Below, one piece after another: positions 1 to 61,849 of a stretch of DNA of 64,000 bases (the stretch's first letter is position 1; every line of letters begins with the position of its first letter). Below the pieces are notes generated by a model, which was not told where the DNA came from, searched no databases, and was given only the letters and a program-made list of their open reading frames with translations. Origin of the DNA: Squalus acanthias (Eukaryota); contig CM059432.1 in the NCBI GenBank assembly GCA_030390025.1, positions 87,608,001 through 87,672,000 on the forward strand, in the 5' to 3' direction. A program made the position numbers and the translations under genes.

Positions 1-3000
1 GAGTCTTGCTGTGATCGGGGGGGTGGTGTTGCTGTGATCGGGGGGTCTTGCTGTGATCGGGGGGTCTTGCTGTGATCGGGTGGGTCTTGCTGTGATCGGG
101 GGGTCTTGCTGTCATCGGGTGGGTCTTGCTGTGATCAGGGGGGGTGCTTGCTGTGATCGGGGGGTTTTGCTGTGATCGGGGGGGGGTCTTGCTGTGATCG
201 GGGGGTCTTGCTGTGATCGGGGGGCCTTGCTGTGATCGGGGGGTCTTGCCGTGATCGGGGGTTCTTGCTGTGATCGGGGGGCTTGCTGTGATCGGGGGGT
301 CTTGCTGTGATCGGGGAGTCTTGCTGTGATCGGACGGTGGGGTCTTGCTGTGATCGGGGGGCCTTGCTGTGATTGGGGGGTCTTGCTGTGATCGGGGGTC
401 TTGCTGTGATTGGGGGGGTCTTGCTTTGATCGGGGGGTCTTGCTGTGATCGGGGTGGTATTGCTGTGATCGGGGAGTCTTGCTGTGATCGGGGGGTGGGT
501 TCTTGCTGTGATCGGGGGGGTCTTGCTGTGATCAGGGGGTCTTGCTGTGATCGGGGTGTCTTGCTGTGATCGGAGGGTCTTGCTGTGATCGGGTGGGGGT
601 CTTGCTGTGATCGGGGGGGTCCTGCTGTGATCGGGGGGGGTCTTGCTGTGATCGGGGGGGGGTCTTGCTGTGATCGGGGGGGGGGTCTTGCTGTGATCGG
701 GGGGTCTTGCTGTGATCGGGGGGGTCTTGCTGTGATCGGGGGGGGGGGTCTTGCTGTGATCGGGGGGGGGGGGTCTTGCTGTGATCGGGGGCGGGGGGGG
801 TCTTGCTGTGATCGGGGTGTCTTGCTGTGATCGGAGGGTCTTGCTGTGATCGGGTGGGGGTCTTGCTGTGATCGGGGGGGTCCTGCTGTGATCGGGGGGG
901 GTCTTGCTGTGATCGGGGGGGGGGGTCTTGCTGTGATCGGGGGGTCTTGCTGTGATCGGGGGGGTCTTGCTGTGATCGGGGGGGGGTCTTGCTGTGATCG
1001 GTGGGGGGGGTCTTGCTGTGATCGGGGGGGGGGGGTCTTGCTGTGATCGGGTGGGTCCTGCTCTGTTCGGGGGGGTCTTGCTGTGATCGGGGGGGTCTTG
1101 CTGTGATCGGTGGGTGGGGTCTTGCTGTGATCGGGGGGGGAATCTTGCTGTGATCGGGGGGTCTTGCTGTGATCGGGGGGTATTGCTGTGATCGGGGGGT
1201 CTTGCTGTGATCGGGGGGGTCTTGCTGTGATCGGGTGGTCTTGCTGTGATCAGGGGGGGTCTTGCTGTGATCGGGGGGGAGTCTTGCTGTGATCGGGGGG
1301 TCTTACTGTGATCGGGGGGAGTCTTGCTGTGATCGGGTGGTCTTACTGTGATCGGGGGGTCTTGCTGTGATCGGGTGGTCTTGCTGTGATCGGGGGGGGC
1401 TTGCTGTGATCGGGGGTCTTCCTGTGATCGGGGGGGAGTCTTGCTGTGATCGGGGGGTTCTTGCTGTGATCGGGGTGTCTTGCTGTGATCGGGGGGGACT
1501 TGCTGTGATCGGGAGGGTCTTGCTGTGATCGGGGGGTCTTGCTGTGATCGGGGGGTCTTGCTGTGATCGGGTGGGTCTTGCTGTGATCGGGGGGGGGGGT
1601 CTTGCTGTGATTGGGGGGTCTTGCTGTCATTGGGTGGGTCTTGCTGTGATCGGGGGGGACTTGCTGTGATCGGGGGGTCTTGCTGTGATCGGGAGGGTCT
1701 TGCTGTGATCGGGGGGTTTTGCTGTGATCAGGGGGTGTCTTGCTGTGATCGGGGGGTCTTGCTGTGATCGGGGGGTCTTGCTGTGATCGGGGGGCCTTGC
1801 TGTGATCGGGGGGTCTTGCTGTGATCGGGGGGTCTTGCTGTGATCGGGGGGGTCTTGCTGTGATCGGGGGGTCTTGCTGTGATCGGGGAGTCTTGCTGTG
1901 ATCGGACGGTGGGGTCTTGCTGTGATCGGGGGGTCTTGCTGTGATCGGGGGGCCTTGCTGTGATCGGGGGGTCTTGCTGTGATCGGGGGGTCTTGCTGTG
2001 ATCGGGGGGGTCTTGCTTTGATCGGGGGGTCTTGCTGTGATCGGGGAGTCTTGCTGTGATTGGGGGGTGGGTTCTTGCTGTGATCGGGGGGGTCTTGCTG
2101 TGATCGGGGGGATCTTGCTGTGATCGGGGGGGGGGTCTTGCTGTGATCGGGGGGGTCTTGCTGTGATCGGGGGGTCTTGCTGTAATCGGGGGGTATTGCT
2201 GTGATCGGGGGGTCTTGCTGTGATCGGGGGGTGGGGTCTTGCTGTGATCGAGGGTGGTCTTGCTGTGATCGGGGGGTGGGGTCTTGCTGTGATCGGGGGG
2301 TCTTGCTGTGTTCGGGGGGGTCTTGCTGTGAGCGGGGGGTCTTGCAGTGATCAGGGGGGTCTTGCTGTGATCGGGGGGTCTTGCTGTGAGCGGGGGGTCT
2401 TGCAGTGATCAGGGGGGTCTTGCTGTGATCGGGGGGTCTTGCTGTGTTCGGGGGGGTCTTGCTGTGAGCGGGGGGTCTTGCAGTGATCAGGGGGGTCTTG
2501 CTGTGTTCGAGGGGTCTTGCTGTGATCGGGGGGGGTCTTGCTGTGATCGGGGGGGTGTCTTGCTGTGATCGGGGGGTCTTGCTGTGATCGAGGGTGGTCT
2601 TGCTGTGATCGGGGGGTGGGGTCTTGCTGTGATCGGGAGGTGGGTATTGCTGTGATCGGGGGGTCTTGCTGTAATCGAGGGGTCTTGCTGTGATCGGGGG
2701 GTATTGCTGTGATCGGGGGGGTCTTGCTGTGATCGGGGGGTCTTGCTGTGATCGGGGGGTCTTGCTGTGATCGGGGGGGTCTTGCTGTGATCGGGGGGTA
2801 TTGCTGTGATCGGGGGGTATTGCTGTGATCGGGGGGGTCTTGCTGTGATCGGGGGGGTCTTGCTGTGATCGGGGGGTCTTGCTGTGATCGGGGGGGTCTT
2901 GCTGTGATCGGGGGGTCTTGCTGTGATCGGGGGGGTCTTGCTATGATCGGGGGGTCTTGCTGTGATCGGGGGGGAGTCTTGCTGTGATCGGGGGGGAGTC

Positions 3001-3425
3001 TTGCTGTGATCGGGGGGTCTTGCTGTGATCGGGGGGAGTCTTGCTGTGATCGGGGGGGGAGTCTTGCTGTGATCGGGGGTGGAGTCTTGCTGTGATCGGG
3101 GGGGGTCTTGCTGTGATCGGGGGGTCTTGCTGTGATCGGGGGGGTCTTGCTGTGATCGGGGGGGTCTTGCTGTGATCGGGGGGTATTGCTGTGATCGGGG
3201 GGTCTTGCTGTGATTGGGGGGAGTCTTGCTGTGATCGGGGGGGTCTTGCTGTGATCGGGGGGAGTCTTGCTGTGATCGGGGGCTTCTTGCTGTGATCGGG
3301 GGGTATTGCTGTGATCGGGGGGGTCTTGCTGTGATCGGGGGGGTCTTGCTGTGATCGGGGGGGTGTTTTGCTGCGGTCAGGGGCGGGGTTTTGCTGTGAT
3401 CAGTGGGAGGGGGGTCTTGCTGCTC
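1..3425. repeat. G-rich minisatellite, unit GTCTTGCTGTGATC + variable G run (~18-25 bp); runs off the left edge of the window
   Basis: Well over a hundred directly visible tandem copies. The overlapping ORFs (GGLAVIG/GSCCDR/PPITAR) are just translations of the unit. Confidence 0.99.
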
Positions 3426-4579
3426 TCTGGGGGTAGTCTGGTGCAAGGGAGGTCCAAGGCTTCATTGTGAGGTGCAGAAGTGCACCCCTGCCTCTCCTGA
3501 CCCATAAAGAAACCTGAAAAATAAATTTAAAGCTTACCTTCTGGGCCTCTTCTGGCCCAGGATCCGGCTCTCAGCAGTTAACTTTTGATGGGATTAAGCA
3601 CACTAATGCTACTTTGCACATTAAACTCTGCCAAGTACATGCTGTGACCTTGAAAACTGAATTTTAATATCAGTGATGGGTTAAAGCCAAGTAACACTAT
3701 GATATTGTATGATTCGGATTCAGTTGACTATACCAATGAACAGCCCTGAATTTCAGCAGCAATAACTCCGATAAAAGAGCTGGTGATTGATGGACCCCTG
3801 GAGAAACGACGTTAACAGTTGCCTTCAGCCATTTACACCATTTCTCCGGGGGTTCCACTGATCTCCCACTGAAGTTGCAGTGGAAGTTCAGGACAAGTTA
3901 ATACTGCACATTCTAATGATGTTAACCATAATATTATAGATATAGTTGTAGGAGAAAGTAATTGTTAGGAGAACGCTGAGATTTGGGTAATAACCTCGAG
4001 ATCTTCCAAGTGCTCTAAGAGTTAATGGTAAACCTTTGCAGTACAGTATTATACTGACATTAACCACTGACTGTAACAGCTACTTGAAGTGAGTTGTTTT
4101 TTGAATGATGACTCCCTGAGCCAAACAGAATTACATACTAGCCATACATGATAAATCCTGATCCAGTCCTTGTGGAATTTTCAATTTAGTTCTTCCTACT
4201 TCCTGTTGCTTGTGATCCAAACTAAGCTCAATGTATCATTCTCCCTTCCAATGGAAAACTTCAGTCATATTGAAACAGTAGCCACACATGATAAATGCTC
4301 ACCTGATTCTTCCTATGAGATTTTTGATTGAATTCATCCTGCTGCTTGTGATCCATGCTAAGCTCAATGTACTGGTCTGACTTCCAGGGGAGAACTTCAA
4401 TCATATCTTGAATGCAGCATATGATACAGCACAGAAGGAGACCATTCGGCCCATCGTGCCTGTGCCGGCTCCTTGGTAGAGCGATCGATTTAGTCCCCTG
4501 CTCTTTCCCCATAGCCATGATCATTTTTTCCCTTCAAATATTTATCCAATTCCCTTTTCAAAGTTACTATTGAATCTGC

Positions 4580-6257
4580 TGTAGGGGGTGGTGGTGTGTG
4601 TCAGCTTTACCTCTGACTTCTGAGCGGTTCGAATCGCTCCCACTCCCTTGGTTCCAGACCTTGGACTTATTTGGGGGTTGTGATACAAAGGTGCAGCAGA
4701 CAACTGAGTTTGATGAAAGAACTTCAATCTTTATTAAAAAGGTAAGACGCAAATAATAACACTCTTAACACTCTAAAGGTGGGGAACACTTCAGTACAAG
4801 CGAGGGAAATGACAGTAGAACAATACTTCACCCCTCCCAACCCCACTTTACGAGCTAAATTAGGTTTTGAAGGACCAGGGATAATGCTCACCAATCCTTT
4901 GACAGTTGGGCTAAATCGCGGTTTTGGGGTTCGCTGTTTATGGCGGTTAGTGTCTGCCGTACCCCGTACGCGGTAGAGGACTTCACCTGAGTCTCTGGTC
5001 AGTCTTCGCGAGTCTGCTGATGCGGTAGGATGTCGTTTTGGATTTATCTGGTGAGTACCAAATTTCTTTGGTTTAGCAGTAGGGCTTAGAGTCTTTGGGG
5101 AAAATCTTACCCAGGAGTAAGTCAGGAGTAGTTTGTAGTGTGGAAACTTTGCGGTTCTTCGGGTTTTCTTCCCTGGAGTTAGTCTTTGTTGGTCGCGGTG
5201 GCCTGCTATTACCCGGTCAGTTGGGGGTAATGCGCGGTTGTTGGTTTCGTGAGGCCTTTGGTTTCCGCGATGGCTTTAGGCCTTGTTTTGTGTGTCGGTC
5301 GACCTCGTGGAGCCGTCGGTGACTTGTTGCTGCTTGTTGCTCCGGGTGACTGTGTTGGGACCGTTGTTGGAGGTCCGTCGAGGTGGCATCTTCACAAGCT
5401 GGACTCAGGTGTGTCTGAGTGGTGAGCGATGCCGACTCGCTTCCAGCTCGGGTTTTCTTCTTCCTGGTTTCTTCTTCTTCTGATGACCACCGGTTGCGAC
5501 TGACTGCTCAGCCTAGAGCTGCTTGATGGGCCTTCAATTATACTAAATTGAAGTGGCCTTATCTACTCGCCAAATCTACTCAGTTCATTGTCTGGTTTTT
5601 GGCGGGCTCGTAAATCGGTAACGACTTACTAGCACGTTAACTGGGATTTTAACAGGCCTTCAATCTCACCCATTGAACATGGCCTTATCTACCCGCCAAA
5701 TCTGCTCAGTTCATTGTCTGAATTTTGGCGGGCCTGTTACCAGTAACTGCTCTGTAAGTGTCAAATGGGTTTTGGGATGGTTTGCATCCTGTCGATCTCC
5801 TTGGCTGATCACTGGTGATTGGTTTCGTGTTTTGGGTTTCTAGGCTGGACTCAGTCTTTTCTATAGACTGGTCCTGAGTGATTTGTATTATGCAAGTTTT
5901 CTGATGGGCCCTGTAATCGGTTTGATAGGACCTATTGTTTTGGGTGGGACTGTCTTCTCCCAGGGTCTATTGTCAAAATGTTAATGCCTGCTGGGACTTG
6001 AGTGAGGTCATCCCAGTTCCCCAGACAGTGCAATTAACTGCAATAACCAAAACTGCTTTTACAGAGGTCGAACCCACCTTCCTTCAGAGCCTTTTCTCCC
6101 TTGACAGGCCCAGACATGTTTTTAAAACGCCAAAACTTGGTTTTTTTTGGTCTTAAATTCCTTAGGTTAGGCCCAAATGCATTTTTATCACTCTGAGGTA
6201 GTTCCAAAGTCCCTTTTCTTTAGGTTTTGGAGATCTGCAAATATTGGAAACCTTACA
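4580..6257 (-). mobile_element. Solo LTR (1,678 bp), Gypsy- or ERV-type
   Basis: TG...CA ends (TGTAGGGG / CCTTACA), 4-bp TSD CTGC (4576-4579, 6258-6261), clean interruption of a CR1, minus-strand AATAAA near 4730-4735, no coding signature. Confidence 0.85.
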
Positions 6258-16843: not shown

Positions 16844-17856
16844 GTTGTATTTATATTGTTATTTACAGCAACTGCTGACTCAGTACCACATGAATTACAA
16901 ACTTAGCTTGCTGTACATTACTGATTTAAGAGCAGGCTATACAGCTGACTAGTATTCCTATGCTTCTGTACTGGCATTACTTCCTGCTCAACCATGATAT
17001 TGTAATAGCTTTGGCATAGTTATGGGAACAACTGGCAGTTCACCAGGAAATTCTAGTGGACTGTTGGAACTTATCTATCTGTAACCTGCTCTCACTGTAC
17101 ACATTTTTTAGCATTTCTACATTCAATTGGATCAACAAAACTGTCAGCTATTCATATGTCAATCACTATGGCCCAATAATTAGAAATAATGGCCCGTAAT
17201 TTGCGGTCAGCAGCGAAGCAAAGGCGTTTGCCGCTGGCCCCGAAGTAAGCTTCCCACAAAGATCTCGCGATTTCTGTGTCGAGAAGTTTGGCTTTTCTGC
17301 TGTGCATTTGAAATCAGTGAAGTTTAGTGGGAATCCCATAGTGCGAGCTGCTATGATGGCAACAGGCTGTCTAAGCAGCCAATCACAATGCAGATTTCTC
17401 ACAGACCGAGAACCAGGAAGTGAGTAAGCTCCTTTGATTCTAACTTTTTTTAAATGTTAGAGAGCAAAACAAAGATTGGGGCTTTCACATGGCGAAAAGG
17501 TAAACCTGAAATAAAGATGAACAAACATTTTTTAAATATTTTTTTTTAATTTTCTGCAAATTTTTAATTTTTATTAGAATGGTTAAACTTGACACTCCAC
17601 AAAATTAAAATTAGTTTTTCAGGGCCATAATGTTCGTTTAGCAGTGAATACGTTGTTAAAACCCCAGTTACACCTAATCCTAAAGGGGTAAAAATTCAGT
17701 TGGTTGCGCCTCCCGTTAGCGTCTTAAGAGGGCGCTAATGGGGCGCAAAGCCGCTAACGCACGGGCGCAGCGATGTTTGCGCCGCTCGGGAACTTAACTA
17801 GACATTGTGCGGCGGCGCTAAACTTTACCGCTGCGACCACCTGTGCGCGCAGATTG

Positions 17857-18005
17857 TGACGTCATTCCATGGTGCAACGCCCTTGTGGCGTCCCGGAGCG
17901 GAAATTGAGTGGCGCCCCCTGCCTTACCGCCTGGCGCATCCAACGACCGGAAGACTGGAACGCTATCAATCGCTGTGGGGCTGGGGGGGGGGGGCGCTAT
18001 TTAAA
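17857..18005 (+). promoter_or_regulatory. Putative transposase promoter: CRE TGACGTCA (17857-17864) and TATA-like TATTTAAA (17998-18005)
   Basis: Motifs seen ~200-340 bp upstream of the ATG at 18200. A CRE also occurs in the relic at 11833-11840. Function is inferred. Confidence 0.45.
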
Positions 18006-18199
18006 GGGGGCCTCTTCCTGTCTTTTTCTGTGGTTGACATTTTTGCACCACTCGTTCTGAGAGAGAGAGAGAGATTCGGAGAGAGAGAAAGAGAGACTTC
18101 TGCATTGAGTCAACGCTTTGTGAGGTAGTTTTGCCTACTGATCCTAACTTCGCTAGTACTTTGGTTGCTGTCCTTCATTACTTTGCTTGCAAAGAGACT

Positions 18200-19360
18200 A
18201 TGGGGGCTGCACTGATTGGGGGCGTCGTCCTGCTCCAGCTGAATCGGAGGACACAGAGACGCAGAGAGAGAGTGGCAATGATGGCCAGACGGAGGAGGGC
18301 CAACAGGCGTATGTACAGGAGAGCTTACCCTCCCAGGGTATATCGTGAACAGCTCTCCTACATTCATATGTCTGAGGAGCTGTGTTTGCGAAGGCTGCGA
18401 TTCAGCAAGGAGGTGGTCACTGAGCTCTGCCACCTGCTGCAGCCAGATCTGCAGCCTCAACTGAGGTCCAGGACGTCTCTGTTGGTGGCAGTGAAGGTCA
18501 CAGTGGCTCTCAACTTCTATGCTACTGGCTCATTTCAAGCTGCTGCTGGGGACCTCGCCAATATCTCCCAGTTCGCGGTGCATTGCTGCATCCGGCAGGT
18601 CACAAATGCCCTCTTTAAAAGGAGACGAGAGTTCATCTCTTTCCCCATGACCCCAGACAAGCAGCGTGACCGCGCTCTGGGCTTTGCGAGGATAGCGGGC
18701 TTCCCCATGGTGCAGGGCGCCATTGACTGCACGCATGTGGCTTTGCGTGCTCCACATGAGAATGCCGAGGAATTCCGGAACAGAAAGGGGTTCCATTCCT
18801 TGAATGTTCAGTTGGTCTGTGACCACAGACAGCTGATACTCACTGTCAATGCCCACTATCCTGGCAGCTGCCACGATGCTTTTATCCTGCGCCAGACTAC
18901 TGTGGCAGAACTTTTCGAGGCACCGCATCAGCCAGTTGGTTGGCTTCTCGGGGACAAGGGGTATCCATTGAGCACCTGGCTGATGACACCGCTCCGTATG
19001 CCCAACACCCCTGCTGAGCTGCGGTACAATGAGAGCCAACAAGCTACCAGGAACATCATTGAGCGTACAATCGGTGTGCTGAAGCAACGGTTCCGCTGTC
19101 ACGACCATTCTGGAGGAGCCCTGCAGTACTCGCCTGAGCGAGTATCCAACTTCGTAGTTGTGTGCTGCATGTTGCATAACATGGCAATCGTCAGGACCCA
19201 GCCAATGCCACCAGGCCTTGGAGCACCACCAGAGGAGGAGGAGGAAGAGGAGGAAGAGGACGAGGAGGATGATCATCAGCAGCACCAAGGCGGGAGGGCG
19301 GCCCACAATGGTGAAACTGCAAGGGCCGTCCGTCAACGGCTATTAGCAAGCCGCTTCTAG
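18200..19360 (+). CDS. Harbinger DDE transposase (HARBI1-like), 386 aa, intronless
   Basis: Open frame from ATG 18200. Motifs LRFSKE, ALNFYATGSFQ, GAIDCTHV, NRKGFHSLNVQLVCD, PGSCHDAFIL, LLGDKGYP, RNIIERTIGVLKQRF; acidic C-terminal tract. Confidence 0.95.
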   Translation: MGAALIGGVVLLQLNRRTQRRRERVAMMARRRRANRRMYRRAYPPRVYREQLSYIHMSEELCLRRLRFSKEVVTELCHLLQPDLQPQLRSRTSLLVAVKVTVALNFYATGSFQAAAGDLANISQFAVHCCIRQVTNALFKRRREFISFPMTPDKQRDRALGFARIAGFPMVQGAIDCTHVALRAPHENAEEFRNRKGFHSLNVQLVCDHRQLILTVNAHYPGSCHDAFILRQTTVAELFEAPHQPVGWLLGDKGYPLSTWLMTPLRMPNTPAELRYNESQQATRNIIERTIGVLKQRFRCHDHSGGALQYSPERVSNFVVVCCMLHNMAIVRTQPMPPGLGAPPEEEEEEEEEDEEDDHQQHQGGRAAHNGETARAVRQRLLASRF

Positions 19361-19672
19361 GGCCCCTGCTGTGGAAATGGCTTCTGCCATTGCTAACAAC
19401 ATCAATGAACCCAGCACGCAACCCCTAAGCCGGCCAAGGCACCAATAATTCCAAACACCAAACATGTATATTTTGAATACAAAAACTTATTTATTTTACA
19501 AACTCTGTGTGTGTCATTTCCTCATGACAAACTCATAGAAATAAACACAAAAAAACAGTCAATAACATAACTGGTTCTCACAACCTGGAGATAATGTCCA
19601 AAACACTAAACAAAAGTTGGACCACGAACCTCGGCCTTTAATAAAAAAATGACCAGCATTTTGTCACACCTC

Positions 19673-21541
19673 CTACTTTTTGCCCTTCGAGGGTGATCGC
19701 CTTCCCTTGCGCACTTCCCCCCTTCTAACCCTACTGCTCCTCCATAATGGGACCTCAGTGGCTGCAGCAAGGCTGGTGGAAGGCTGCTGATCGTCAGACC
19801 CTGACACTGCAGATGCCCCTGAAGGACGGCCTCGACCAGTTCTGGGCCTGGAGGGCCCGGCTGCAGACTGCACCAACTCTGCATGGGCGGCAGCAGTCTG
19901 TCCTACAGGCGGTGGCAAGTGCAGTGGAGAAGTGACAGTGTTGGCAGCAGGAATGCTGTCATCGTGAGAGAGGACAGCAACTCCCTGCTCGACCGACACA
20001 CTGGCACTCCCACGGGGCAGCACTTCAGCATCCGGAGCAATCTGCTGGAGAACAGATTGCTGGCCTGCTGCGGCGCGGTGAGAGCCCCGGGGACATGTGA
20101 ACGAACCATCGAGGTTGGCCGCAGTCTGTGCTCGCGTGGCCTCAATCTGAGTCTGCATGAGAGCAGTCAGAGATGGGATCACGGCAGCCAGTGACTGAAT
20201 TGCAGCACTAAGCGTTAGTGTGGCATCCGCCTGTGCTACAGCGAAGTGCTGCACACTCCTTGCCAGTGACTCAATGCATTCGGGCACCCTTCCCACTGCA
20301 CCCATGAGCTCAGTGTGCATGCCCACCGCCTGGGTGTTCATTTCTGCGATCAGCCGCACCTCCTCTGCGTCCATTGCAGTAGGAGTCTCTGGCATACTCT
20401 CCCTCTGGGGAGAAGGCCCCCGTTCTTCCCTACCCCCATGGCGTTGCTGCAGCCCGCTGGGTCCTGGAGCTTCACCCTCATCAGACCCTTCCCCCCTGCT
20501 CCCCTCCAGGGAAGGCGTGTTCCCAGTGTGGGCATGGGCTTCCTCGGGAGAGGGTGGCACTGATGCTCCGGCTTCCTCTTCCTCCTCGGCTGCAGCTTCA
20601 CTCCCAGTGGCAGCTTCAGGGCCCGTCTCCTCAGCTGGTGAATCACCATCTGAAAGCAGGGAGGTACAAGAGTGGCTTTAGCGTGAGGACAGGGTGGCAG
20701 TAAGGGAGGAATAAGTGCAGCGAGTTAGCAAGTTGGATTGAAAGTGTCAAAGGCTGGTGTTGTGAGGGACAAGTGGAAGGACAGAGGACAAAAAGGTGAT
20801 GACCTTACCATTGCTGTCCAGAACGGGGTCGGCGTCTCCAGTGGCGACGGGACCGATCACCCGGCTTGCCACAATCCTGTGGACGCGCTCCTCAAGATCG
20901 CTGAGGGGTTGCAGCTGAGGCCGCCCTCCACCTGTCCGTTGCTGCTGTCTCCGATTATGCGCCAGCTTGGCCTGCAAGAAAAAGGACAGCATCTGAGTAA
21001 ATATACAGCCATGGTCTTGCCTGATGTGCCTCCCATAGGTGAATAGCCCTTACTGTATACAGCCATGGTCTTGCCTGATGTGCCTCCCATAGGTGAATAG
21101 CCCTTACTGTATGCAGCCATGGTCTTGCCTGATGTGCCTCCCATAGGTGAATACTGTATGCAAAGTGTGGAATGTGTGTGTGTGTGTTTCATGAAAGGGC
21201 CATAGGTGTTGGATGAGTGTTGTGCATTGTGGTTTTAAGACCCTCTGGCCATAGAGTGAGGTTGAGATGGAGGGATGGAGAGGTATTGAGAAAAAGCCAC
21301 TCACCCTGACGACCCGAGTGAGGTCGTTGAACTTTTTGCGGCATTGAGTATGGGTCCTGGGCACCATGCTCCTGGAGGAGACGCTCTGAGCCACCTCCCT
21401 CCACACTCTTCTGTACTCGCGTGGCAAAGGCCTCCTGCCACTCTCAGGGAAGAGTATACATCTTCTGCGCTCCACCGCGCCAACCAGAGCATCCAAGGCC
21501 CGCTCGGTGAAGCGCTGAGCTCGTTCTCTCACCCTCTCCAT
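19673..21541 (-). CDS. Myb/SANT-like (trihelix) DNA-binding partner protein, 458 aa; exons 21541-21305, 20971-20809, 20649-19673
   Basis: Exon 1 RFTERALDALV..W.EVA..RTHTQCRKKFNDL. Donors GTGAGT and GTAAGG, acceptors TTCTTGCAG and CTTTCAG. Exon lengths 237+163+977=1377 nt join in frame without stops. Confidence 0.9.
21002..21155. repeat. Three near-identical 54-bp tandem repeats in intron 1 of the Myb gene
   Basis: TATACAGCCATGGTCTTGCCTGATGTGCCTCCCATAGGTGAATAGCCCTTACTG starting at 21002, 21056 and 21110. Confidence 0.95.
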
Positions 21542-22756
21542 CCTTGGCAGCAAAATGGATTCACAGGTCTCTCCAGGCCGAGATTCAAGGCTGCAATGAG
21601 CAGGGTGTGGCTGGGGAGCAAGTTGGCCCCCCCCGCTTTAAGAACTGGCCAGCGCCAGTGTGTCTGTGTTCCCTCGCTAACTGGCAGCACCTGCGCTGCG
21701 CTCGCGCGCTGAGTTAGCGCCTCACTGCTCGGCCTTTGCGCCTTAAGACAGGTGTGCAGCGCCTGATTTAGCGCTCCACTCACCTCCCGGGGCGGTAAAA
21801 GTGAAGTTTCCAGTCAGTGGCGATAATTAGCGCCAGGCGCTAATATTTGCGTCCAGACGATATTTGCGCCCCAAACGGGGCGCGACCTAATTTTTCCCCC
21901 AAAGGGTCTACCTTCTAATTAGGTATTTAACAGTGATTCTACAGCGAAAGAGCCAAAGTTTTCATCAGTTTCCCTGATTTCACAGCTGTTTGTTCGCTGT
22001 TATTACCCACTGCAAATTCCGGACCATATTTTCCTTTACCAGTTATTGATAGTATTATTTTACAGAGATAACCATTTAATTCTGGAATGTGATTGAAGCT
22101 GTCTTGCCTTAGTTACACATCTGTAAAATAAATTATCTGACAGGGTTGTGAGAGTTAATTCAATTACTGTCCCCCATCTCTTAAAACATTCATGTTTAAA
22201 ATGGGCAGTTGGTTAAAAAACGATAACCATTAGCCATTTACATTAATGTCAATTTCAAAGTTGCTGGTTATAGCGTCCGTTATGTGCTCCGTTTATTTTG
22301 GGCAGAAACAGCTGTGCTCACTAGTTCGCACCTCATTAAAGTGCACTGAATTCAAGAAGATAAGACAAAACTGTCTTCAAATTAAGAGGCTATTCTACAA
22401 TAATGTCGTATAATTACCACCAGCAAAATGCTTTACACTAATGGCAATTTCTAGGCTTGATAGATTTCCATAATTCATGAGCAATAATTTAATAACTGTT
22501 GGTATGGATTTCACAGAGGTGCACAGGCACCGAAGCATTAACATCCCCTGTTATGTGTGTGTTGCAGCTGCCTGCGTTTCCTGCTCATTTACCTGTATGC
22601 TGGCTGGTGCTCCCTACTTTCTGTTCCTTGATTTCAGCTGATGCTTGCCACTACCCTCCATCCACAGTCCTCCACAACCTGTCCTGGAATGCTCCTCTGC
22701 TGCCCATTGTCTTCCACCATCTAGCCTGGCTTACCCCACTCCCATATATTGTCCTC

Positions 22757-39225: not shown

Positions 39226-39417
39226 ACACACTTCCCTCTTGCAGAAGGTAGCACATAACAGCAGGCAGCAGCAAAGAACTGGAGGAGGACAAGTGCGGTT
39301 GCATGTTTTAATGCCCATGGAAGAGACAGTGCTGGCCATCATGGGAAGGGGCATTGCTGAGGCTGTGGCCACTGGCGGCACTGGAGAGATCTATGATGAA
39401 GGTCTCTGCAATTAGTG

Positions 39418-40790
39418 CCCCAGCAGTCTACTCTTAATCACCAGCAAAATGATGGAAGGTGTCATCGACAGTGTTATCAAGCGGCACTTACCCAATAACC
39501 TGCTCACTGAGACCCAGTTTGGGTTCAACCAAGAGCACTCGGCTCTCGACCTCATTACAGCCTTGGTCCAAATATGGACACAGGAGCTGAATTCCAGAGG
39601 TGAGGTGAGAGTGACTGCCCTTGACATCAAGGCAGCATTTGACCGAGTCTGGCATCAAGGAGCCCTAGTAAAACTGAAGTCAATGGGAATCAGGGGGAAA
39701 ACTCTCCACTGGCTGGAGTCATACCTAGCACAAAGGAAGATGGTTGTGGTTGTTGAAGGTCAATCATCACAGCCCCAGGACATCGCTGCCGGGGTTCCTC
39801 AGGCCAATGTCCTAGGCCCAACCATCTTCAGCTGCTTCATCAATGATCTTCCCCCCAACATAAGGTCAGAAATGAGGAAGTTCGCTGATGACTGCACAGT
39901 GTTCAGCATCATTCACAACTCCTCAGATAATGAAGCAGTCCATGGCCGCATGCAACAAGACCTGGACAACATTCAGGTTTGGGCTGATAAGTGGCAGGTA
40001 ACATTCACGCCACAGAAGTGCCAGGCAATGACTATCTCCAACAAGCAAGAGTCTAACCACCGCCCCATGACATTCAACGGCATTACCATTGCCGAAACCC
40101 CCACCATCAACATCCTGGGGGTTACCATTGACCAGAAAATTAACTGGACCAGCCACATAAATACTGTGGCAACAAGAGCAGGTCAGAGGCTAGGTATTCT
40201 GTGGCGAGTGTCTCACCTCCTGACTCCCCAAAGCCTTTCCACCATCTACAAGGCACAAGTCAGGAGTGTGATGGAATACTCTCCACTTGCCTGGATGAGT
40301 GCAGCTTCAACAATGCTCAAGAAGCTCGACACCATCCAGGACAAAGCAGCCCGCTTGATTGGCACCCCATCCACCACCTTAAACATTCACTCCCTCCACC
40401 ACCGGCGTACCGTGGCTGCAGTATCTACCATCTACAAGATGCACTGCAGCAGCACGCCAAGGCTTCTTCAGCAGCACCTCCCAAACCCGCAACCTCTTCC
40501 ACCTAGAAGGACAAGGGCTGCAGGCACATGGGAACACCACCACATCCAAGTTCCCCTCCAAGTCGCATACCATCCTGACTTAGAAATATATCACCGATCC
40601 TTCATCGTCGCTGGGTCAAAATCCTGGAACTACCTACCAAACAGCACTGTGGGAGTACCTTCACCAAATGGACTGCAGCGGTTCAAGTAGGTGGCTCACC
40701 ACCACCTTCTCAAGGACAATTAGGGATGGGCAATGAAAATGCTGGCCTTGCCAGCGACGCCCACATCCCATAAAAACGAATAAAAAAGAA
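39418..40790 (+). mobile_element. 5'-truncated LINE family B, RT ORF fragment 39449-40690
   Basis: ALDIKAAFDRVWH, GVPQANVLGP, KFADDC; same 3' end as 11362 and 55600. Confidence 0.92.
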
Positions 40791-41531: not shown

Positions 41532-43276
41532 ATGATGCAGCATCTGATGGCCGATGTCACAGCTTCCATTGCAGCACAAGCAGCTTCCATCAAAGGTCTG
41601 AGTGCTGCAGTGGAATCTCAGGCTGCTGCCCTAATGGGTCTGGATACCACTATTCAAAGGGGCTTCCAGGGTGTCACTGCAGTCCATCAATCTGTCCTCC
41701 AACAGAGTACTAGGATTGCTGAGGCGCCGCCCCAGGAGAGTGGGAGTGGTTCCATGGAGCACAAACTTGCTGGCCTCTTCAGGATGACAGCATTCAAGCT
41801 CCCACCCCTGTCACTCCGACAGTGCCCATGCTGTTGCCTGTCAGCCAGCCAGCCTAGATTGCTGCAGCCGAAGCCGAGATGGCAAAGATGTGATGGTCAG
41901 TGATAGAGGAAAAACAAATAGCATGGGACTGTTGGTGAATGGGGAGGTATAGTTGAGGTTACTAATATCGATCATGAATAATCTGATCACATAGATCCCT
42001 GGCAGAAAGGGCCTGTTTATGCCGTAGCCTCCCTTCCTGCTTCCCCTCTCCACTTCCTCAAACTCCTCCTCCTCTTTCTCGTGCTCCTGCTCCTCAGCCT
42101 CTCGCCTGATAGGTGGTGGCAAGGGCTGTTCCCTCATAATGGCGAGGTTGTGCAGCATACTACCACAAATCTCGATACCTGATCAGCTGAGTACAGCAGA
42201 GCTCCTCCAGAATGGTGCAGGTAGCGGAAGTTTGAAGATGCCGATGGTGTGTTCTATAATGTTCCTTGTGGCAGCATGGCTCTCATTGTAGACCTACTGT
42301 GCACTTGTGCGTGGGTTTCTGACCGTAGTCATGAGCTATGTCATGAGGTGTAAGCCTTGTCACCCAGTAGCCAGCCTTTGACTTGCCATGGTGGTTCAAA
42401 TTCAGGTGGAACGGAGGACTGCTGCAGAATGAAGGAATCGTGACTACTGCCAAGATAACGGGCTTGCATGACGCACTGCCTGTGGTCGCACACCAGCTGC
42501 ACATTGAGGATGGAATCCCTTTCTGTTGATGAAAATGGCCGAGTTCACATGAAGAGAACGTAAGGCAATCTGCAGGCAGTCAATGGCACTCTGCACCATG
42601 GGGAAGCCTGCAATCTGTGCAAAACCTGTTGCATGCTCCACCTGCTTGTCTCTGGCAAGAGGGAATGAGATCAATGTGTTTCTCATTGTATATAGAGCCT
42701 CAGTGACCTTCCTTATACAGCAGTGTACTGCAAATTGCGAGATGTTGCTTATATCTCCAGCAGCAGCCTGAAAGGAGCCAAAGGCACAAACATTAAGAGC
42801 AACAGTCACCTTGACAGCCACAGGCAATGCGGTCCTTGCCCTGCTTTGAAGTTGCAGTTGTGGCTGCAGCAGTTAGCAGATTTCACTCAGGACCTCTTTT
42901 GTGAAGCGAAGACGTCTTATGCATTGGTCTTCGCTGAAGAGAATTGCTCCCTGAAGACCCTCGGCAGATATGGCCTGCTGCTGAGAGTCCTTCTCTCCCT
43001 CCTCCTCCCTCTTCTAGCAGCTTGTCCTGCTCTGCGTGGCCTCTCTTCATTCTCCCAGTCATATTCAATTCCCAGAGGAAGCCCTACCAGGCCATCCATG
43101 TCTGGAAGTATCTTTTTTTAGCACAAGCTTTTAAATACACAAAAGGGACTGCAAGACCAGCCAGACCATTCCCTGTAGTGTACTTAAACATTAGCGAAGT
43201 ATAGGAAAGCTCCAAAAACATATACAATTGCACCACAGCCAGAAGAAATAATCCAGCAACTAACCTGTAAGTACTT

Positions 43277-46200
43277 CATAGAAACATAGAAACATAGAAG
43301 ATAGGAGCAGGAGTAGGCCATTCGGCCCCTCGAGCCTGATCCGCCATTCGATGAGATCATGGCTGATCATCCAAACTCAGTACCCTGCACCTGCCTTCTC
43401 CCCATATTCCTTGATACCTTTAGCTTTAAGAAATATATCTAACTCATTCTTGAATATATTTAATGACTTGGCCTCAACTACCTTCTGTGGTAGAGAATTC
43501 CACAGGTTTACCACTCTCTGGGTGAAGAAATTCTTCCTCATTTCTGTCCTAAATGGCTTACCCCTTATCCTTAGATTATGACCCCTGGTTCTGGACTCTC
43601 CGACCATCGGGAACATTCTTCCTGCATCTAGTTTGTCCAGACCTGTCAGAATTTTATATGTTTCGATGAGATCCCCTCTCATTCTTCTATACTCCAGCGA
43701 GTATAAGCCCAATCGACCCAATCTCTCCTCATATGTCATTCCTGCCATCCCAGGTATCAGCCTTGTGAATCTTCGCTGAACTCCTTCCATGGCAAGAACA
43801 TCCTTCCTCAGATAAGGCGACCAAAACTGCACACAGTACTCAAGGTGTGGTCTCACCAAGGCCCTGTACAACTGCAGCAGGACATCCCTGTTCCTATACT
43901 CAAACCCTTTCGCTATGAAGGCCAACATACTATTTGCCTTCTTCACCGCCTGCTGTACCTGCATGCTTACCTTCAGCGACTGGTGCACAAGGACACCCAG
44001 GTCTCATTGCACTTCCCCTTCTCCCAATCTATTGCCATTCAGATAATAGTCTGCCTTTCTGTTTTTGACACCAAAGTGGATAACCTCGCATTTATCCATG
44101 TTATATTGCATCTGCCACGCTTCTGCCCACTCACCCAACCTGTCCAAATCATCCTGGAGTTTCTCGGTATCCTCCTCGCAGCACACACGCCCACCCAGCT
44201 TTGTGTCCTCTGCAAACTTGGAGATATTACATTTAGTTCCCTTATCTAGATCATTAATGTATATTGTGAATAGCTGGGGTCCAAGGACTGATCCCTGCGG
44301 TACCCCACTAGTCACTGCCTGCCACTCGGAAAAAGACCCATTAATTCCTACTCTCTGCTTTCTGTCCGCCAACCAGTTCTCTATCCAAGTCAATAACTTG
44401 CCCCCAATCCCATGTGCCTTAACTTTACACGCTAATCTCTTATGCGGGACCTTATCGAAAGCCTTTTGAAAGTCCAAATACACCACATCTACTGGTTCTC
44501 CATTATCTATTTTCCCAGTTACATCCTCAAAAAATTCCAGTAGATTAGTCAAGCACGATTTGCCTTTTGTAAATCCATGTTGACTTTGTCCGATCCTGTC
44601 ACTGTTTTTCAAGTGCTCAGCTATTACATCCTTTATAATGGACTCTAGCATTTTCCCCACTACCGATGTCAGGCTTACTGGTCTGTAATTCCCCGCTTTC
44701 TCTCTACCACCCTTTTTGAATAGTGGGGTAACATTAGCTACCCTCCAATCCATGGGTACAGTTCCAGATTCCATCGAATGTTGGAAGATGATCAGCAATG
44801 CATCTATTATTTCTAGGGCCACTTCCTTAAATACCCTAGGATGTAGATTATCAGGCCCTGGGGATTTATTGGCCTTCAATCCCGTCAATTTCCCTAACAC
44901 CATTTCCCTGCAAATACTGATTTCTTTCAGTTCCTCCCTTTCATCAGACCCTATGTTCTCCAACATCTCTGGGAGGTTATTTGTGTCCTCCTTCGTGAAG
45001 ACAGAACCAAAATATGCATTTAATTGGTCTGCCATTTCTTTGTTCCCCATTATAACTTCCCCCGCTTCTGACTGCAAGGGACCTACACTTGATTTCACTA
45101 ATCTTTTTCTCTTCACATATCTATAAAAGCTCTTACAGTCAGTTTTTAATGTTCCCAGCAAGCTTACTTTCATATTCTATTTTCCCCTTCTTAATTAATC
45201 CCTTTGTCCTCCTTTGTTGAATCCTAAACTGCTCCCAATCCTCAGGGTTACCGCTTTTTCTGGCCAATTTATATGCCCTCTCCTTGGATCTTATGCTATC
45301 CCTAATTTCCCTTGTTAGCCACGGTTGAGTCACCCTTTTTGTTTTATTCTTATGCCACACTGAAAAGAACAAATTCTGTAGTTCATCCATGCAGTCTTTG
45401 AATGTTTGCCATTGCCTATCCACCGTCAACCCTTTGAGTGACATTCCCCAATCAATCCTACCCAATTCGCGCTTCATACCATCGTAGTTTCCTTTATTTA
45501 AATTCAGGACCCTAATCTCTGATTCAACGACTTCACTCTCCATCCTAATGAAGAATTCTATCATATTATGATCACTCTGACCCAAGGGGCCTCGTACAAC
45601 AAGATTGCTAATTAATCCTTTCTCGTTACGTAATACCCAGTCTAAGATGGCCTGATCTCTGGTTGGTTCCTCGACATATTGTTCCAGAAAACCATCCCGT
45701 AAACATTCTAGGAATTCCTCCTCCACAGTATTTTTACTAATTTGGTTAGCCCAATCTATATGTAAATTAAAGTCACCCATGATGACTGCTGTGCCCTTAC
45801 TGCATGCTTCTCTAATTTCCCTTTTAATGCCGTCCCCAACCTCCGTATTACTGTTTGGAGGTCTATATACCACTCCCACTAACGTTTTCTGCCCCTTGTT
45901 ATTTCTCAGTTCTACCCATACAGATTCCACATCATCAGAGTTACTATCCTTCCTTTCAATTGTGTTAATCCCCTCTTTAACCAGCAATGCTACCCCACCT
46001 CCCTTTCTTTTTTGCCTATCTTTCCTAAATATTGAATACCCCTGGATGTTGAGTTCCCAGCCTTGGCCACCCTGGAGCCATGTTTCTGTAATCCCAATCA
46101 AATCGTATTCATTTACCTCTATTTGCGTAGCTAATTCATCCACCTTGTTCCGAATGCTCCTTGTATTAAGACACAAAGCCTTCAGGCTTGTTTTTTTAAC

Positions 46201-46300
46201 GCTCTCAGACCTATATGAATTATTATTTACTGTGACCATGTTTGATTTAAACCGTTGAGTTCTTTGCCTTCTACTTTGTTTTTCTCCTTCCTGTCTTTTG
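43277..46300 (-). mobile_element. CR1 LINE with near-complete ORF2 (EN+RT), one frameshift (~45150) and one stop (~44004)
   Basis: ORFs 45139-46239, 44004-45173, 43377-43988; (CATAGAAA)n tail. Confidence 0.95.
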
Positions 46301-48203
46301 CTTAAAATAGCACTGATGGGGTTGGTGGGCGGGGGTGAGTCCTTTTCAGCTGTGCAAGGTTAAGACATGGAGTTGGCTGGAGTGTGAAGTTCCAAAATGG
46401 CAGCGGTAGCGTGAAATCAGCGTTGAATTGTGATTTACGTCATAATCTGCTTGCTCTGCATGCTGCTGGCGGTCGTTAGGCATGTGCACACAAACCCCTT
46501 TACCAAGATGGCATCCTGCACACATTCCGTCTTGGACCCCATTATGAAACCTTAGGTGGCCGTGAAGCACCTAAAAAAAGGGTGCTAAGTTGTCCAATTT
46601 AACCTCCTTTATATTTTGTTTCATTTTTTTTTATCATGGAGTGCTCAAGTCACTTTAGCAACCTGTAGCAGAATTTGGGATTGATTCCAGAAATGTTATA
46701 TTTGATTAATCAAAAAGTGAATGGGAGTTATTTTGGCCATAGGGTTAAAACAAGCACCAAATAGGTGGTGTGCTAGTAAGAAATGCTTACTTGAAAGTCC
46801 GGATTTAGCACGTAATTTTCGGATTAATTGATGATTATCATGATTTCAACATGCCTGCAGGCACTGAAGCCGACAACTGCAGGTTTAGCACTCAAGCACT
46901 GATTAGGTGCAATTTTTCTGGTGCTGTATATGTAGCCTGCCCTCCAGTTGTGGAGTGCGCTGGCTGGGAGTTGAAGGATATCGCAAGGAGCAAGAGAGAG
47001 GGTGCCCAGGTTCTCCAACGCGACACTGGAGGACCTGATGGAGGAAGTAGATAGGAGGAGGGATGTCCGCTAACTGCAGGGGGAAGGAGGCCACAGAGCC
47101 AGCTGATGCGCTGCATGTGGGACGTGATCGCCTGGGAGGTGACAGCCAGCAGCCCTGGCCCCACCACATGGCTCCTGCGCCACAAGAAATTTAATGACAC
47201 GAGTGCTCAAGGTAAGATCCCATCTCACAAAGACACTTCTCAATAACTACAACACCACCACCAGCATCACAACCTCAACACACTGCATCCACCATCTAAC
47301 TATACACTGACATTCACACACCCTACACTATTGCATCCTTCACAGGCACAACTCACATCTCACAGGTCTTCAACCATTGAACAAGGGTGTAACATTTGCA
47401 ATTCTCCAGTCCTCTGGCACCACCCCCGTACCCAATGAGGATTGGAAGATTATGGCCAGTACCTCCGCTATTTCCACCTTTATTTCCCTCAGCATCCCAG
47501 GATGCATCCCATCCAGTCCTGGTGACTTATCTACTTTAAGCACAGCCAGCCTTTCTAGTACCTCCTCTTTATCAATTTTTATCCCATCCAATAGCTCAAC
47601 TACCTCCTCTTTCACTATGACATTGGCAGCATCTTCTTCCTTGGTAAAGACAGATGCAAAGTACTCATTTAGTACCTCAGCCATACCCTCTGCCTCCATG
47701 CGTAGGTCTCCTAATCGGCCCCATCCCTCCTCTTACTACCCGTTTACTATTTATATGCCTATAGAAGACTTTTGGATTCCTTTTTATGTTAGCTGCCAGT
47801 CTATTCTCATACTTCCTCTTTGCCCCTCTTATTTCCTTTTTGACTTCCCCTCTGAACTTTCTGTATTCAGCCTGGTTCTCACTTGTATTCTCAACCTGAT
47901 ATTTGTCATACCACCCCTTTTTTCTGCTTCACCTTGCTCTATATCTCTTTCGTCATCCAGGGAGCTCTGGCTTTGGTTGCCCTACCTTTCCCTCTCATGG
48001 GAATATACCTCGACTGTACCCAAATCATCTCCTCTTTAAAGGCTGCCCATTGTTCAATTACACTTTTGCCTGCCAATCTTTGATTCCAATTTACCCAGGC
48101 CAGGTCTGTTCTCAACCCACTGAAATTGGCCCTCCTCCAATTAAGCATTTTGACTCTAGATTGCTCTTTGTCCTTTTCCATAGCTAACCTAAACTTTATG
48201 ATA

Positions 48204-55600: not shown

Positions 55601-56221
55601 ATCACTGGATAGGCTGAACAGAAGCCCCGAGGTAGTGGCGTGGGAATCATGGAGCAGGAACCTACTGGGCTGTCTCCGGATGGCAGTATTGCTGCTCTCT
55701 CCCTCGCCACTCCACCATTGACCTTGCCGGTGCCTGTCAGCCAGGCGACCCAGACTGCTGAAGCCCATGCTGAGATGGTGCAGTCTGAGGCAGGGCCATC
55801 AAGACCCACAGCCTCTCGAGGGCATCCCAGGAGGTCATCTGAACTACCCTCTTAAGATTCTCAGCAGCCATCCACCTTGCCTGCTGCTGCCACTGGGGTT
55901 GCACTTCATAGAAGCATCAGATTAGGCAAGTGCACTTATAGCCACTAAGGGTAAGCACCAGGGTGAATAATTTAATATTTGTAAGTGATGTTGGTTCTGT
56001 CATGTTTACATATTTTGTTTTTGATGAATATAAACAGTGATGATGGTAATTGGTTAGTGGTGGAATCGGTGTTTTCATTGTGATCTTCATGGGAAGGGGT
56101 TGAAAGGATTGAGTGCAGATGATGGACTGCCTGATGGATCCGAAGTCGTGGAAGATACATCATGTGGCAACAGTGCTCTGGAGTCTGATGGTAGAGCATG
56201 TCTCTCGAAAGCGCTGTTCAG

Positions 56222-57007
56222 TTAGATAGCGGCAAGCGTCCCTCCCAGGTGTGGCCCGTCGACCTGGAACCCTCTGGTGCTCCCCCTGGTCCCCCGGTCC
56301 TTCTCTTCCTCCTCCTCCTCTTCCTCTTTATCCTCTTCTTGTGGCTCCTGGGCTTGACACTCTGGCACAATTCCTGGTGTTAACAGCTGGTCTCTCATGA
56401 TTTCCAGATTGTGGAGCATGCAGCAAATCACCACGAATGTGGACACTTTCTTGGCTGAGTACTGCAGGGGACCTCCTGACCGGTCAAGGCATTTAAACCT
56501 CTGCTTGAGGACCCCAGTGGTCTGCTCAATTATATTCCTGGTGGCTGAGTGTCTCTCATTGTATGAGTGCTCAGCTGGTGTCTGGGGCTTTCTCAGGGTA
56601 GTGATGAGCCATGGCCTCAGAGGGTATCCTTTGTCACCTAGTAGCCAGCCATCCACATTGCGTTGGGGCTCAAAGATCTGTGGGATGGATGACTGTCTCA
56701 TTATAAACGCATCGTGGCAATTCCCTGGATAGCAGGCATTCACCTGCATGATACGCTGCCGGTGGTCACAGACAAGCTGTACATTGAGGAAATGGAATCC
56801 CTTCCTGTTCCTGAACACCTCCGAGTTTAAATGAGGGGCTCGCATGGCCACGTTTGCAGTAAATGGTACTTGGACCACGGGGAATCCCACAATCCTGTCG
56901 AATCCTAGTGCTCTCTGTCTCTGGTCTTCTCTGGCAATAGGGAATGATATACAGTTATTTCTTAGAGTGTATAGAGCCACAGATACCTCCCTTATGCAGA
57001 ATTGCAC
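56222..57007 (-). pseudogene. Harbinger transposase remnant (N-terminus deleted, first catalytic GAID motif disrupted)
   Basis: NRKGFHFLNVQLVCD, PGNCHDAFI, LLGDKGYP, RNIIEQTTGVLKQRF; GFPVVQVPFTANV replaces GFPMVQGAIDCTHV. Confidence 0.9.
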
Positions 57008-61814: not shown

Positions 61815-61849
61815 TCTGCATGAAACTCTGTTTGGGCTGTATTGAATTG

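Follow-up and report, generated by a model that had tools for sequence, protein, structure and literature searches.

The element at positions 17685..21900 of the window, by which is meant the whole 64,000-nucleotide stretch of Squalus acanthias DNA analyzed here, is a complete two-gene PIF/Harbinger cut-and-paste transposon. With a probability of about 0.7, it is one of thousands of 4.2-kb two-gene Harbinger copies, inserted into an older repeat with duplication of the triplet AAA, and is likely to belong, as a dormant copy, to a wave of middle age. Spread of the family by transposition is supported by the many loci at which copies lie, their different flanks, and the perfect 3-bp duplications around 93 of 110 copies; the original prediction of a complete two-component element is upheld, and the element is not a domesticated gene. 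The features of the element and its insertion site are collected in Table 1.

Table 1. Features of the Harbinger element and its insertion site (positions in the window)
Feature	Position	Strand	Basis or remark
Left arm of older short repeat with inverted ends (insertion host)	17190..17684	+	paralogues
Left TSD, AAA	17682..17684		single triplet in 7/7 empty paralogues
Left TIR, 12 bp	17685..17696	+	pairs with 21889..21900
CpG-rich left end and transposase leader	17685..18199	+	CpG observed/expected 0.97
Harbinger DDE transposase, 386 aa, open	18200..19360	+	Pfam DDE_Tnp_4
Myb-like gene, exon 3	19673..20649	-	acidic low-complexity middle, basic C terminus
Myb-like gene, intron 2, 159 bp, GT-AG	20650..20808	-	joint in contigs of runs X1 and X2
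Myb-like gene, exon 2	20809..20971	-	sequence
Myb-like gene, intron 1, 333 bp, GT-AG	20972..21304	-	homology
54-bp tandem repeat, 2.8 copies, within intron 1	21002..21153		sequence
Myb-like gene, exon 1, Myb/SANT domain	21305..21541	-	PF13873, E 1.3e-9
CpG-rich right end and Myb leader	21542..21900	-	CpG observed/expected 0.81
Right TIR, 12 bp	21889..21900	-	inverted match to left TIR
Right TSD, AAA	21901..21903		matches left AAA
Right arm of the same host repeat, with an internal deletion compared with paralogues	21901..22026	+	paralogues; empty-form joint in X1 and X2

Both the TIRs and the 3-bp TSD that had been predicted are present. The TIRs agree at 11 of 12 letters and their likeness ends after about 14 bp, whereas Harbinger TIRs are usually 25–50 bp according to the available part of PMC9179366. 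The left arm of the host repeat matches 39 other places at 85–88% identity (among 6,922 candidates), and all seven paralogues continue across the junction without the element, with AAA occurring once in six of them and GAA in one; the AAA duplication is therefore real. The empty-form joint in X1 and X2 contigs belongs to host-repeat paralogues and not to the window locus. CpG is retained at both ends, as had been claimed; against the ratios in Table 1, the 1-kb flanks reach only 0.58 and 0.32. The first 31 bp of the element occur exactly 7,354 times in the genome (control, 0) and the last 24 bp 3,571 times. Non-autonomous derivatives of 726–897 bp retain the left end (17685..18199), where 17 of 17 fetched short elements align.

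The transposase frame contains no stop and matches DDE_Tnp_4 (PF13359, E 1.2e-37) as well as PF04827 (E 9.3e-12); the acidic residues expected of the catalytic site, Asp176 (in GAID), Asp226 (HD), Asp252 (GDKG), and Glu288 (IE), are all intact, in agreement with the original reading. There are 436 homologues at E ≤ 1e-20, and of those with a name among the best 120, almost all come from sharks or rays and are labeled "putative nuclease HARBI1," the best at 71%; a search for solved structures related by sequence to the element proteins gave none, the best E value being 0.24. The window copy has four private transposase changes, S95L, A215T, L301H, and I382L; column 301 is otherwise Leu in 108 of 115 homologues, and both L301H and S95L are absent from 85 other tabulated copies. 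Its Gln280 is common to the youngest grades of the family. The change H280Q (His in 99 of 117 homologues) had been considered as proof of damage and was dropped, as all 37 copies of the two youngest grades carry it, and Asn277 (Asn in 105 of 115 homologues) is altered there as well; the argument against the window copy from conserved residues is therefore weak.

The three-exon Myb/SANT gene was predicted with exact junction coordinates, and its exons join into 458 codons with no internal stop; the domain is Myb_DNA-bind_5. Splicing of intron 2 at the level of the family is probable: the joint 20649/20809 is found in contigs of X1 and X2, runs that are only guessed to be RNA and whose contigs carry neither strand nor level, and is absent from X15 and X18. 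The expected joint 21305/20971 of intron 1 is not among the listed joints of these four runs, and splicing of intron 1 rests on homology, with homologue P0008 aligning gap-free over the exon 1/2 joint. The donor and acceptor of intron 2 and the donor of intron 1 are each identical in 106 of 108 copies. In X1, a letter exclusive to the two youngest grades accounts for 929 of 2,198 summed depth at position 20208, and at positions 17761, 17844, 18483, 18842, 19101, 19699, and 19744 the contigs of X1, X2, and X15 carry wholly, or almost wholly, the family letter and not that of the window copy. The one RNA run with raw reads, X18, from another organism, gave eight partial reads on a simple repeat; sequencing runs with shares of 0.06–0.08 were left out.

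A 31-mer from the catalytic region occurs exactly 6,405 times in the genome (control, 0). Among 60 position-ordered matches sampled, 53 were full length with both ends and 17 of these 53 keep both frames, from which about 1,800 copies with both frames open are extrapolated; the share of the family in the genome is extrapolated to about 0.64%. The first genome search with the window element found at least 37 places at 98–99% identity; the 30 that were fetched are all full length, and the 1-3914 listing of some copies, which had suggested a second right end, was a search artefact. Because the genome searches gave scores to only some 35 of 2,300–6,100 candidates, they could have overlooked a still younger group. 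The 30 copies of this focal grade differ by 1.28% on average in pairwise comparison and hold 478 singleton variants. Their private transposase changes comprise 79 nonsynonymous, 27 synonymous, and 4 stops (pN/pS about 1), whereas variants shared by four or more copies number 1 nonsynonymous and 6 synonymous, showing that single copies decay without selection after insertion and that shared transposase variants are under purifying selection. Within its genome the window copy is an ordinary one, and it lies in a middle-aged grade (about 0.6% private change).

The family forms a succession of grades, the youngest of which (L085, L092-L120) consists of 30 copies that are 99.8–99.9% alike and about 8 times younger than the grade of the window copy; a second query returned the same set. 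No identical pair occurs among these 30, the closest being one letter apart (L093, which has no private difference, and L100), and none at unrelated sites among 83 sampled copies, where the closest pair, at 0.07%, is a segmental duplicate with shared flanks. Younger bursts were sought around L039 and L037, two other short-branch copies, and none was found, every other match scoring more than about 80 and 140 bits below self. The 17 short derivatives compared are not younger either (closest pair 0.45%, median 1.46%).

Ongoing transposition of the family by way of its youngest grade appears rather unlikely. Both frames are open in 28 of its 30 copies, 27 of 29 have perfect duplications, each copy is only 1–7 letters away from the commonest letters, and young-type letters on the Myb side appear in X1, a probable RNA run with intron 2 spliced out. 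However, the lack of identical pairs is accompanied by private differences (mean 3.1, variance 3.7 in 4,234 bp) that fit a single Poisson burst with no excess of zeros, and the RNA status of X1 and X2 is a guess. At the epaulette-shark rate of 7e-10 per generation (PMC10587355) the burst is about 1.0 million generations old (0.5–5.2 million), a figure taken from another species' rate and likely too old because CpG-rich DNA mutates faster. It is improbable, in turn, that the window copy itself is autonomous, competent, and currently mobile. Its open frames, acidic motifs, intact splice signals, CpG-rich ends, and single mismatch among 63 strongly conserved transposase columns speak for this reading, but the copy carries 28 substitutions from the commonest letter, 15 of them unique among 30 copies, its nearest sampled relative is 0.95% away, L301H and S95L are private, and the run contigs show the family letter at the seven positions given above. 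The original suggestion that this copy is young and possibly mobile is thus not sustained, given also the much younger grade; as a candidate gene-transfer tool it gives way to that grade, which fits better even though it lacks identical copies. With its frames, splice signals, ends, and four acidic residues intact, the window copy may nevertheless still work.

A domesticated gene pair of the HARBI1/NAIF1 type is suggested by the names of the best homologues and by the two open frames, and the proteins do belong to the same families. Unlike HARBI1/NAIF1, however, the shark element is multi-copy, with terminal repeats, duplications, and unselected decay of single copies. Thousands of copies have their own duplications, private changes show pN/pS near 1, in the same grade a stop interrupts the transposase frame in 4 of 30 copies and the Myb frame in 8 of 30, and host-repeat paralogues lack the insertion; domestication is refuted for the family and is scarcely credible for this copy.

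Returning to the reading of a dormant copy, the likely way in which the family moves can be outlined from published Harbinger work. The spliced Myb/SANT protein would bind the element ends and carry the DDE transposase into the nucleus, and the transposase would excise the element and insert it at the center of a palindromic site, with 3 bp duplicated. The last burst seen would be recent on the scale of shark mutation and is probably over, and the window copy would at most be moved in trans or be the source of one protein. The target preference, worth 9.8 bits (uncorrected) in 66 sites and present in the later set of 93, extends about 8 bp outward from the duplication, with a half-site T-W-A-R-A-C-W-C and a center mostly of A/T. 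Once 26 named repeat-tail sites are excluded, 73 sites, with the two sides combined, give A, A, A, C, A, C as the commonest letters at positions -6 to -1. Homing to LINE tails as a special mechanism was rejected, since removing the tail sites leaves the motif in place and 77 of 110 insertions have no flank in common with another.

The lineage leading to the youngest grade has accumulated about 4–5 times more changes than dormant copies (168 versus 46), with a different spectrum, and tree-free three-sequence counts reject a clock in five of five trios (weakest, 30 versus 60). We tentatively propose, at somewhat less than even odds, that a cut-and-paste element has survived in a slowly mutating shark as a single lineage that renews itself, in the manner of mammalian L1, that its active line changes 4–5 times faster than the copies left behind, with a transversion-rich, CpG-poor spectrum, driven by transposition (error-prone donor-site repair) and/or serial escape from host silencing, and that the youngest natural copies are working gene-transfer elements with a 15–19-bp target bias that need no reconstruction. 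The ladder and rate excess could instead be artefacts, if long-diverged subfamilies recombined or converted one another's sequences, or if the family re-entered from another host. Near-identical DNA occurs in sequencing runs of at least seven organisms, L052 is a clear recombinant, L077 has a short tract, and 44 of 258 backbone sites changed more than once where about 8 are expected, so that the parsimony total of 303 is inflated. However, across 199 diagnostic sites 13 of the 14 copies tested lack a block structure, and young letters build up in nested order; of the young-derived letters, the abundant 893-bp derivative has only 1–2 of 46 and the divergent copy L061 has 4 of 166; with the clock rejected in every trio as well, the artefact is judged a doubtful account. 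Three further ideas were set aside. The idea that introns follow the clock and exons do not, drawn from 3 fixed differences in 493 intron bases, was weakened on 108 copies: introns show 17 backbone and 140 tip changes versus 22 and 137 at Myb synonymous sites (p 0.49) and 111 and 611 in ends plus UTRs (p 0.17), and only transposase synonymous sites deviate (56 and 166; p 0.0005). Escape from small RNAs by avoidance of G:U-tolerated transitions finds no support (43/50 versus 283/238, p 0.18), and adjacent double changes, considered as a polymerase signature, are not in excess (8 of 303 backbone versus 49 of 1,659 older tip changes).

Comparisons with known systems draw on the available parts of the cited papers. 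The reconstructed zebrafish Harbinger3_DR, compared by description and not by sequence, likewise has a DDE transposase, a Myb-like protein, a 3-bp duplication, and a palindromic target, published as AAACAC-CWG-GTCTTT (PMC3016246, PMC2836001). The shark flanks agree with those of this target, but the centers differ, the shark triplets being all A/T in 64 of 93 sites and CWG in 2; the shark copies with both frames open are natural. Both proteins are needed for Harbinger3_DR and mPing, which excise precisely (PMC2836001). Rice Ping/Pong with mPing resembles the shark family as a two-protein system with short non-autonomous derivatives and an extended target preference; its activity is demonstrated and its preference spans 9 bp (PMC2836001), whereas the shark family is known here from sequence and has TAA or TTA at 19 of 93 centers. 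Intact natural vertebrate Harbingers are not new, because 269 intact copies of Harbinger-Snek, with transcripts and short derivatives, are reported from the sea krait L. colubrina (PMC8437027). That family is likewise a large vertebrate expansion with intact two-gene copies, but it arose in one sharp burst after horizontal transfer and occupies 8–12% of its genome, whereas the shark family has a far smaller extrapolated share, perhaps 1,800 both-frame copies, a stepwise series of grades, and numerous relatives in sharks and rays. Within the same superfamily, this extrapolated share lies above the teleost range of 0.002–0.14%; the same source found no Harbinger in elephant shark, and its authors ask for tests in other cartilaginous fish (PMC9179366). 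Among the DNA transposons of the grey reef shark, Tourist and Harbinger types are reported to be the most common (PMC12498223), and the present family may already appear in shark-genome TE tables or in Repbase/Dfam.

The shark family answers the call made in PMC9179366 for tests in other cartilaginous fish. The vertebrate Harbinger shown to move in human cells was rebuilt from a consensus (PMC2836001); the 28 natural, 99.8–99.9% alike copies with both genes make the two-protein mechanism and target choice testable without reconstruction, and this younger, nearly identical intact grade offers a better test of mobility than the window copy. Flanks like those of the zebrafish element around a different center offer a direct means of assigning each part of the site to the protein that reads it. 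If the rate excess is true, a DNA transposon without reverse transcriptase can outpace the clock of its host, which would affect the dating of such elements.

The Harbinger element is complete, and the features named in the original prediction (inverted ends, a 3-bp target-site duplication, a stop-free transposase, a three-exon Myb/SANT gene and CpG-rich ends, at 0.97 and 0.81) were all recovered (see the table). The acidic residues D176, D226, D252, and E288, three of which we take to form the catalytic triad, are all unchanged in this transposase. The element is inserted in an older repeat whose left arm matches 39 other places at 85-88%; the seven paralogues fetched are all continuous over the junction and lack the element, with one AAA in six and GAA in one. 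Among four sets of borders for the Myb exons, the tabulated set is stop-free, one is a shifted equivalent without GT-AG ends, and two in other frames contain 8 and 19 stops. The window holds several Harbinger families.

Features of the window and, in the last three rows, of other parts of the genome (G000)
Feature	Position	Strand	Description
Harbinger element	17685-21900		4,216 bp; 12-bp inverted ends, 11/12 alike; AAA both sides
Transposase frame		+	386 aa, open; Pfam DDE_Tnp_4, E 1.2e-37
Myb/SANT exon		-	E 1.3e-9 (domain scan)
Myb gene exons	21541-21305, 20971-20809, 20649-19673	-	GT-AG joints; 458 aa, stop-free
Older host repeat	17190-22026
Older decayed Harbinger transposase/Myb pieces	41679-42944, 55613-57010, 59462-59797, 61773-61847	-	Transposase protein identity 43-68%
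Older decayed Harbinger transposase/Myb piece	46990-47198	+	As above
19/39-bp unit array	3-3401		19-mer, ~168 copies
Long open frames resembling LINE remnants	39416-40687, 53147-54208	+	Judged by eye
Long open frame resembling LINE remnant	44007-46359	-	Judged by eye
Copies L002/L003	C25:43671271-43679718		Two elements in octamer tail
Copy L052	C1:18922992-18928022		Left half from one grade, right half from younger grade
Copies L054-L057	C1:19.91-19.96 Mb		Flanks in common

Evidence on splicing of the Myb gene comes from comparing the element with four (X1, X2, X15, and X18) of 18 listed sequencing runs. The predicted junction 20809/20649 of intron 2 is present in contigs of X1 and X2, which are from two organisms and are guessed to be RNA; it is absent from X15, where one contig is continuous through the intron, and X18 contributes only 8 reads, all partial and within a simple repeat. 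The predicted intron 1 junction, 21305/20971, is not among the joints listed for these four runs; this intron is supported by the homologue P0008, a database gene model rather than a transcript, whose alignment is gap-free over residues 5-113 of the spliced product but, with the read-through product, ends at residue 80, and by a donor that is the same in 106 of 108 copies. P0008, a sawshark protein of 523 aa with both Myb/SANT and DDE domains, is likely to be a gene-model fusion. The run contigs carry letters of the family, the private letters of the window's copy not being shown. Runs of seven organisms (X1-X17) contain 56-63% of the element's words. At 20208, a letter diagnostic of the family's two youngest grades is found in X1 but not in X2 or X15, which hints weakly that the latest bursts came after a species split.

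A genome search of the kind the original prediction proposed found near-identical copies at 37 places (98-99% identity), and exact patterns number 7,354 for left ends, 6,405 for catalytic-region 31-mers and 3,571 for right ends, with 0 for controls. In a sample of 60 copies (the first 61 catalytic-region matches on contig C1, minus one already in the set), 53 have both ends and 17 of these have both frames. Extrapolation gives 5,658 full-length copies (4,984-6,036), both frames being open in 1,815 (1,185-2,611), and a family total of ~24 Mb, or 0.64% of the 3.7-Gb genome, numbers that are rough because the sample is a single 33-Mb stretch that includes local duplicates. Copies L054-L057 and the pair L078/L079 have flanks in common, are 0.07% and 0.26% apart, and are local segmental or tandem duplications rather than new insertions. 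Seventeen short derivatives (726-897 bp) retain both ends. Among the best 120 of 436 transposase homologues, those with names are almost throughout from sharks and rays, with a top identity of 71%; the genome is here termed shark-type.

The 30 best matches to the window's copy have a mean pairwise distance of 1.28% and 478 singleton variants. Their private transposase changes (79 nonsynonymous, 27 synonymous, 4 stops) give a pN/pS of 0.95-1.14, whereas variants in at least 4 copies comprise 1 nonsynonymous and 6 synonymous; source elements are therefore under selection and inserted copies are not. The Myb gene lacks such a contrast (private 91/21/6; shared 7/1). A tree of 83 copies, made by a quick method with strong support for 20 of 80 inner branches, is a ladder in which end branches shorten from 1-2% at the base through ~0.5-0.7% in the grade of the window's copy to <0.2%. 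A search with one of the youngest copies, L085, gave 29 others at 99.79-99.93%, and another query recovered this set again. Both frames are kept in 28 of these 30 copies, with a transposase of 386 aa. Private differences number 0-7 per copy, with a mean of 3.1 and a variance of 3.7, and no pair among the 30 is identical, the closest having 1 difference. The Myb protein in this grade, 488 aa, is 30 aa longer through exon 3, and intron 1 is 49 bp shorter; in the grade below, both lengths vary and several copies are out of frame. At the epaulette shark rate of 7e-10 per generation (available text of PMC10587355), the youngest grade dates to ~1.0 million generations (0.5-5.2) and that of the window's copy to 8.9 million (4.4-45), but only the ratio of ~8 is firm, because the rate is that of another species and CpG decay is ignored.

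The original prediction, confirmed in what it observed, is thus supported only in part in its interpretation: the complete two-component Harbinger stands, but not the young, mobile copy. The window's copy belongs to a grade ~8 times older than the youngest, and its transposase has, M267 apart, five private or near-private changes, including L301H in a column that is Leu in 108 of 115 homologues. H280Q was rejected as a mark against it, since this change is fixed in the two youngest grades. The window's copy itself is ordinary.

Perfect 3-bp duplications are present at 93 of 110 target sites (two duplicate twins removed); 64 are all A/T, 19 are TAA or TTA, and 2 are CWG. These sites have T-W-A-R-A-C-W-C as their half-site, position -4 being A in 168/186. 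Insertion sites coincide with shared positions of other repeats in 33 of 110 cases, and four of eight flank frames scanned match reverse transcriptase; the repeat with this match and an octamer tail is presumably CR1. Two elements lie 11 bp apart within an octamer tail at four loci (L002/L003, L013, L017, and L020). L002 and L003 are head-to-head sisters that differ by 0.52%, suggesting a local jump. Another abundant repeat carries seven insertions (L014, L023, L085, L095, L097, L128, and L136) at a single position, in both orientations. With 26 named repeat-tail sites excluded, the letters seen most often from -6 to -1 read A, A, A, C, A, C, which equals the left half of the target of the reconstructed zebrafish Harbinger3_DR, AAACAC (available text of PMC3016246).

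If changes accumulated by a clock, every copy alive today should lie as far from the common ancestor as any other. With an old grade as outgroup, however, copy L001 has 46 unique changes and the youngest-grade copy L093 has 168 (chi-square 69.6); two further such trios give 32/169 and 47/182, and two trios from the upper part of the ladder give 24/84 and 30/60. Fixed differences between the grades number 181, and at 150 of them the young line has the derived letter. Parsimony on 108 copies (L057, L079, L061, and L040 excluded) assigns 303 changes to the backbone, where the C>T share is 22%, versus 51-53% in the tips (p 4e-22; 6e-8 without CpG transitions). Recombination could produce such an excess artefactually: one copy, L052, is a recombinant, and repeated changes at 44 of 258 backbone sites point to recombination that inflates the count of 303. 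But 13 of 14 copies lack block structure, and the young letters come neither from an 893-bp derivative (1-2 of 46 sites) nor from L061 (4 of 166).

Along the young line the transposase is under purifying selection (ratio 0.31), the Myb gene being near 0.85. Selection to escape silencing, as the driver of the excess, agrees with the surplus of changes at synonymous sites of the transposase (p 0.0005); two predictions that follow from it, however, were not borne out. In plants, error-prone repair after excision increases mutation near DNA transposons (available text of PMC5023962). The same errors may act on restored donor elements. The youngest tips resemble background in spectrum, and therefore the error per jump, if any, is small. 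At about even odds, we prefer repair mutagenesis plus some selection to selection alone as the cause of the fast line.

The available portions of published sources describe the two-protein mechanism, precise excision and a 15-bp target preference in vertebrates (PMC2836001), 269 intact copies of Harbinger-Snek in one sea krait (PMC8437027), a naturally mobile nematode family (bioRxiv 10.64898/2026.05.26.728016), and Harbinger as common among grey reef shark DNA transposons (PMC12498223) and undetected in elephant shark (PMC9179366). A literature search whose coverage left out most subscription journals and repeat databases listed no work on Harbinger families of sharks, and none on DNA transposons whose active line evolves faster. 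The value of the present family lies in its intact youngest grade, its target flanks in common with Harbinger3_DR, and its apparent excess of rate.
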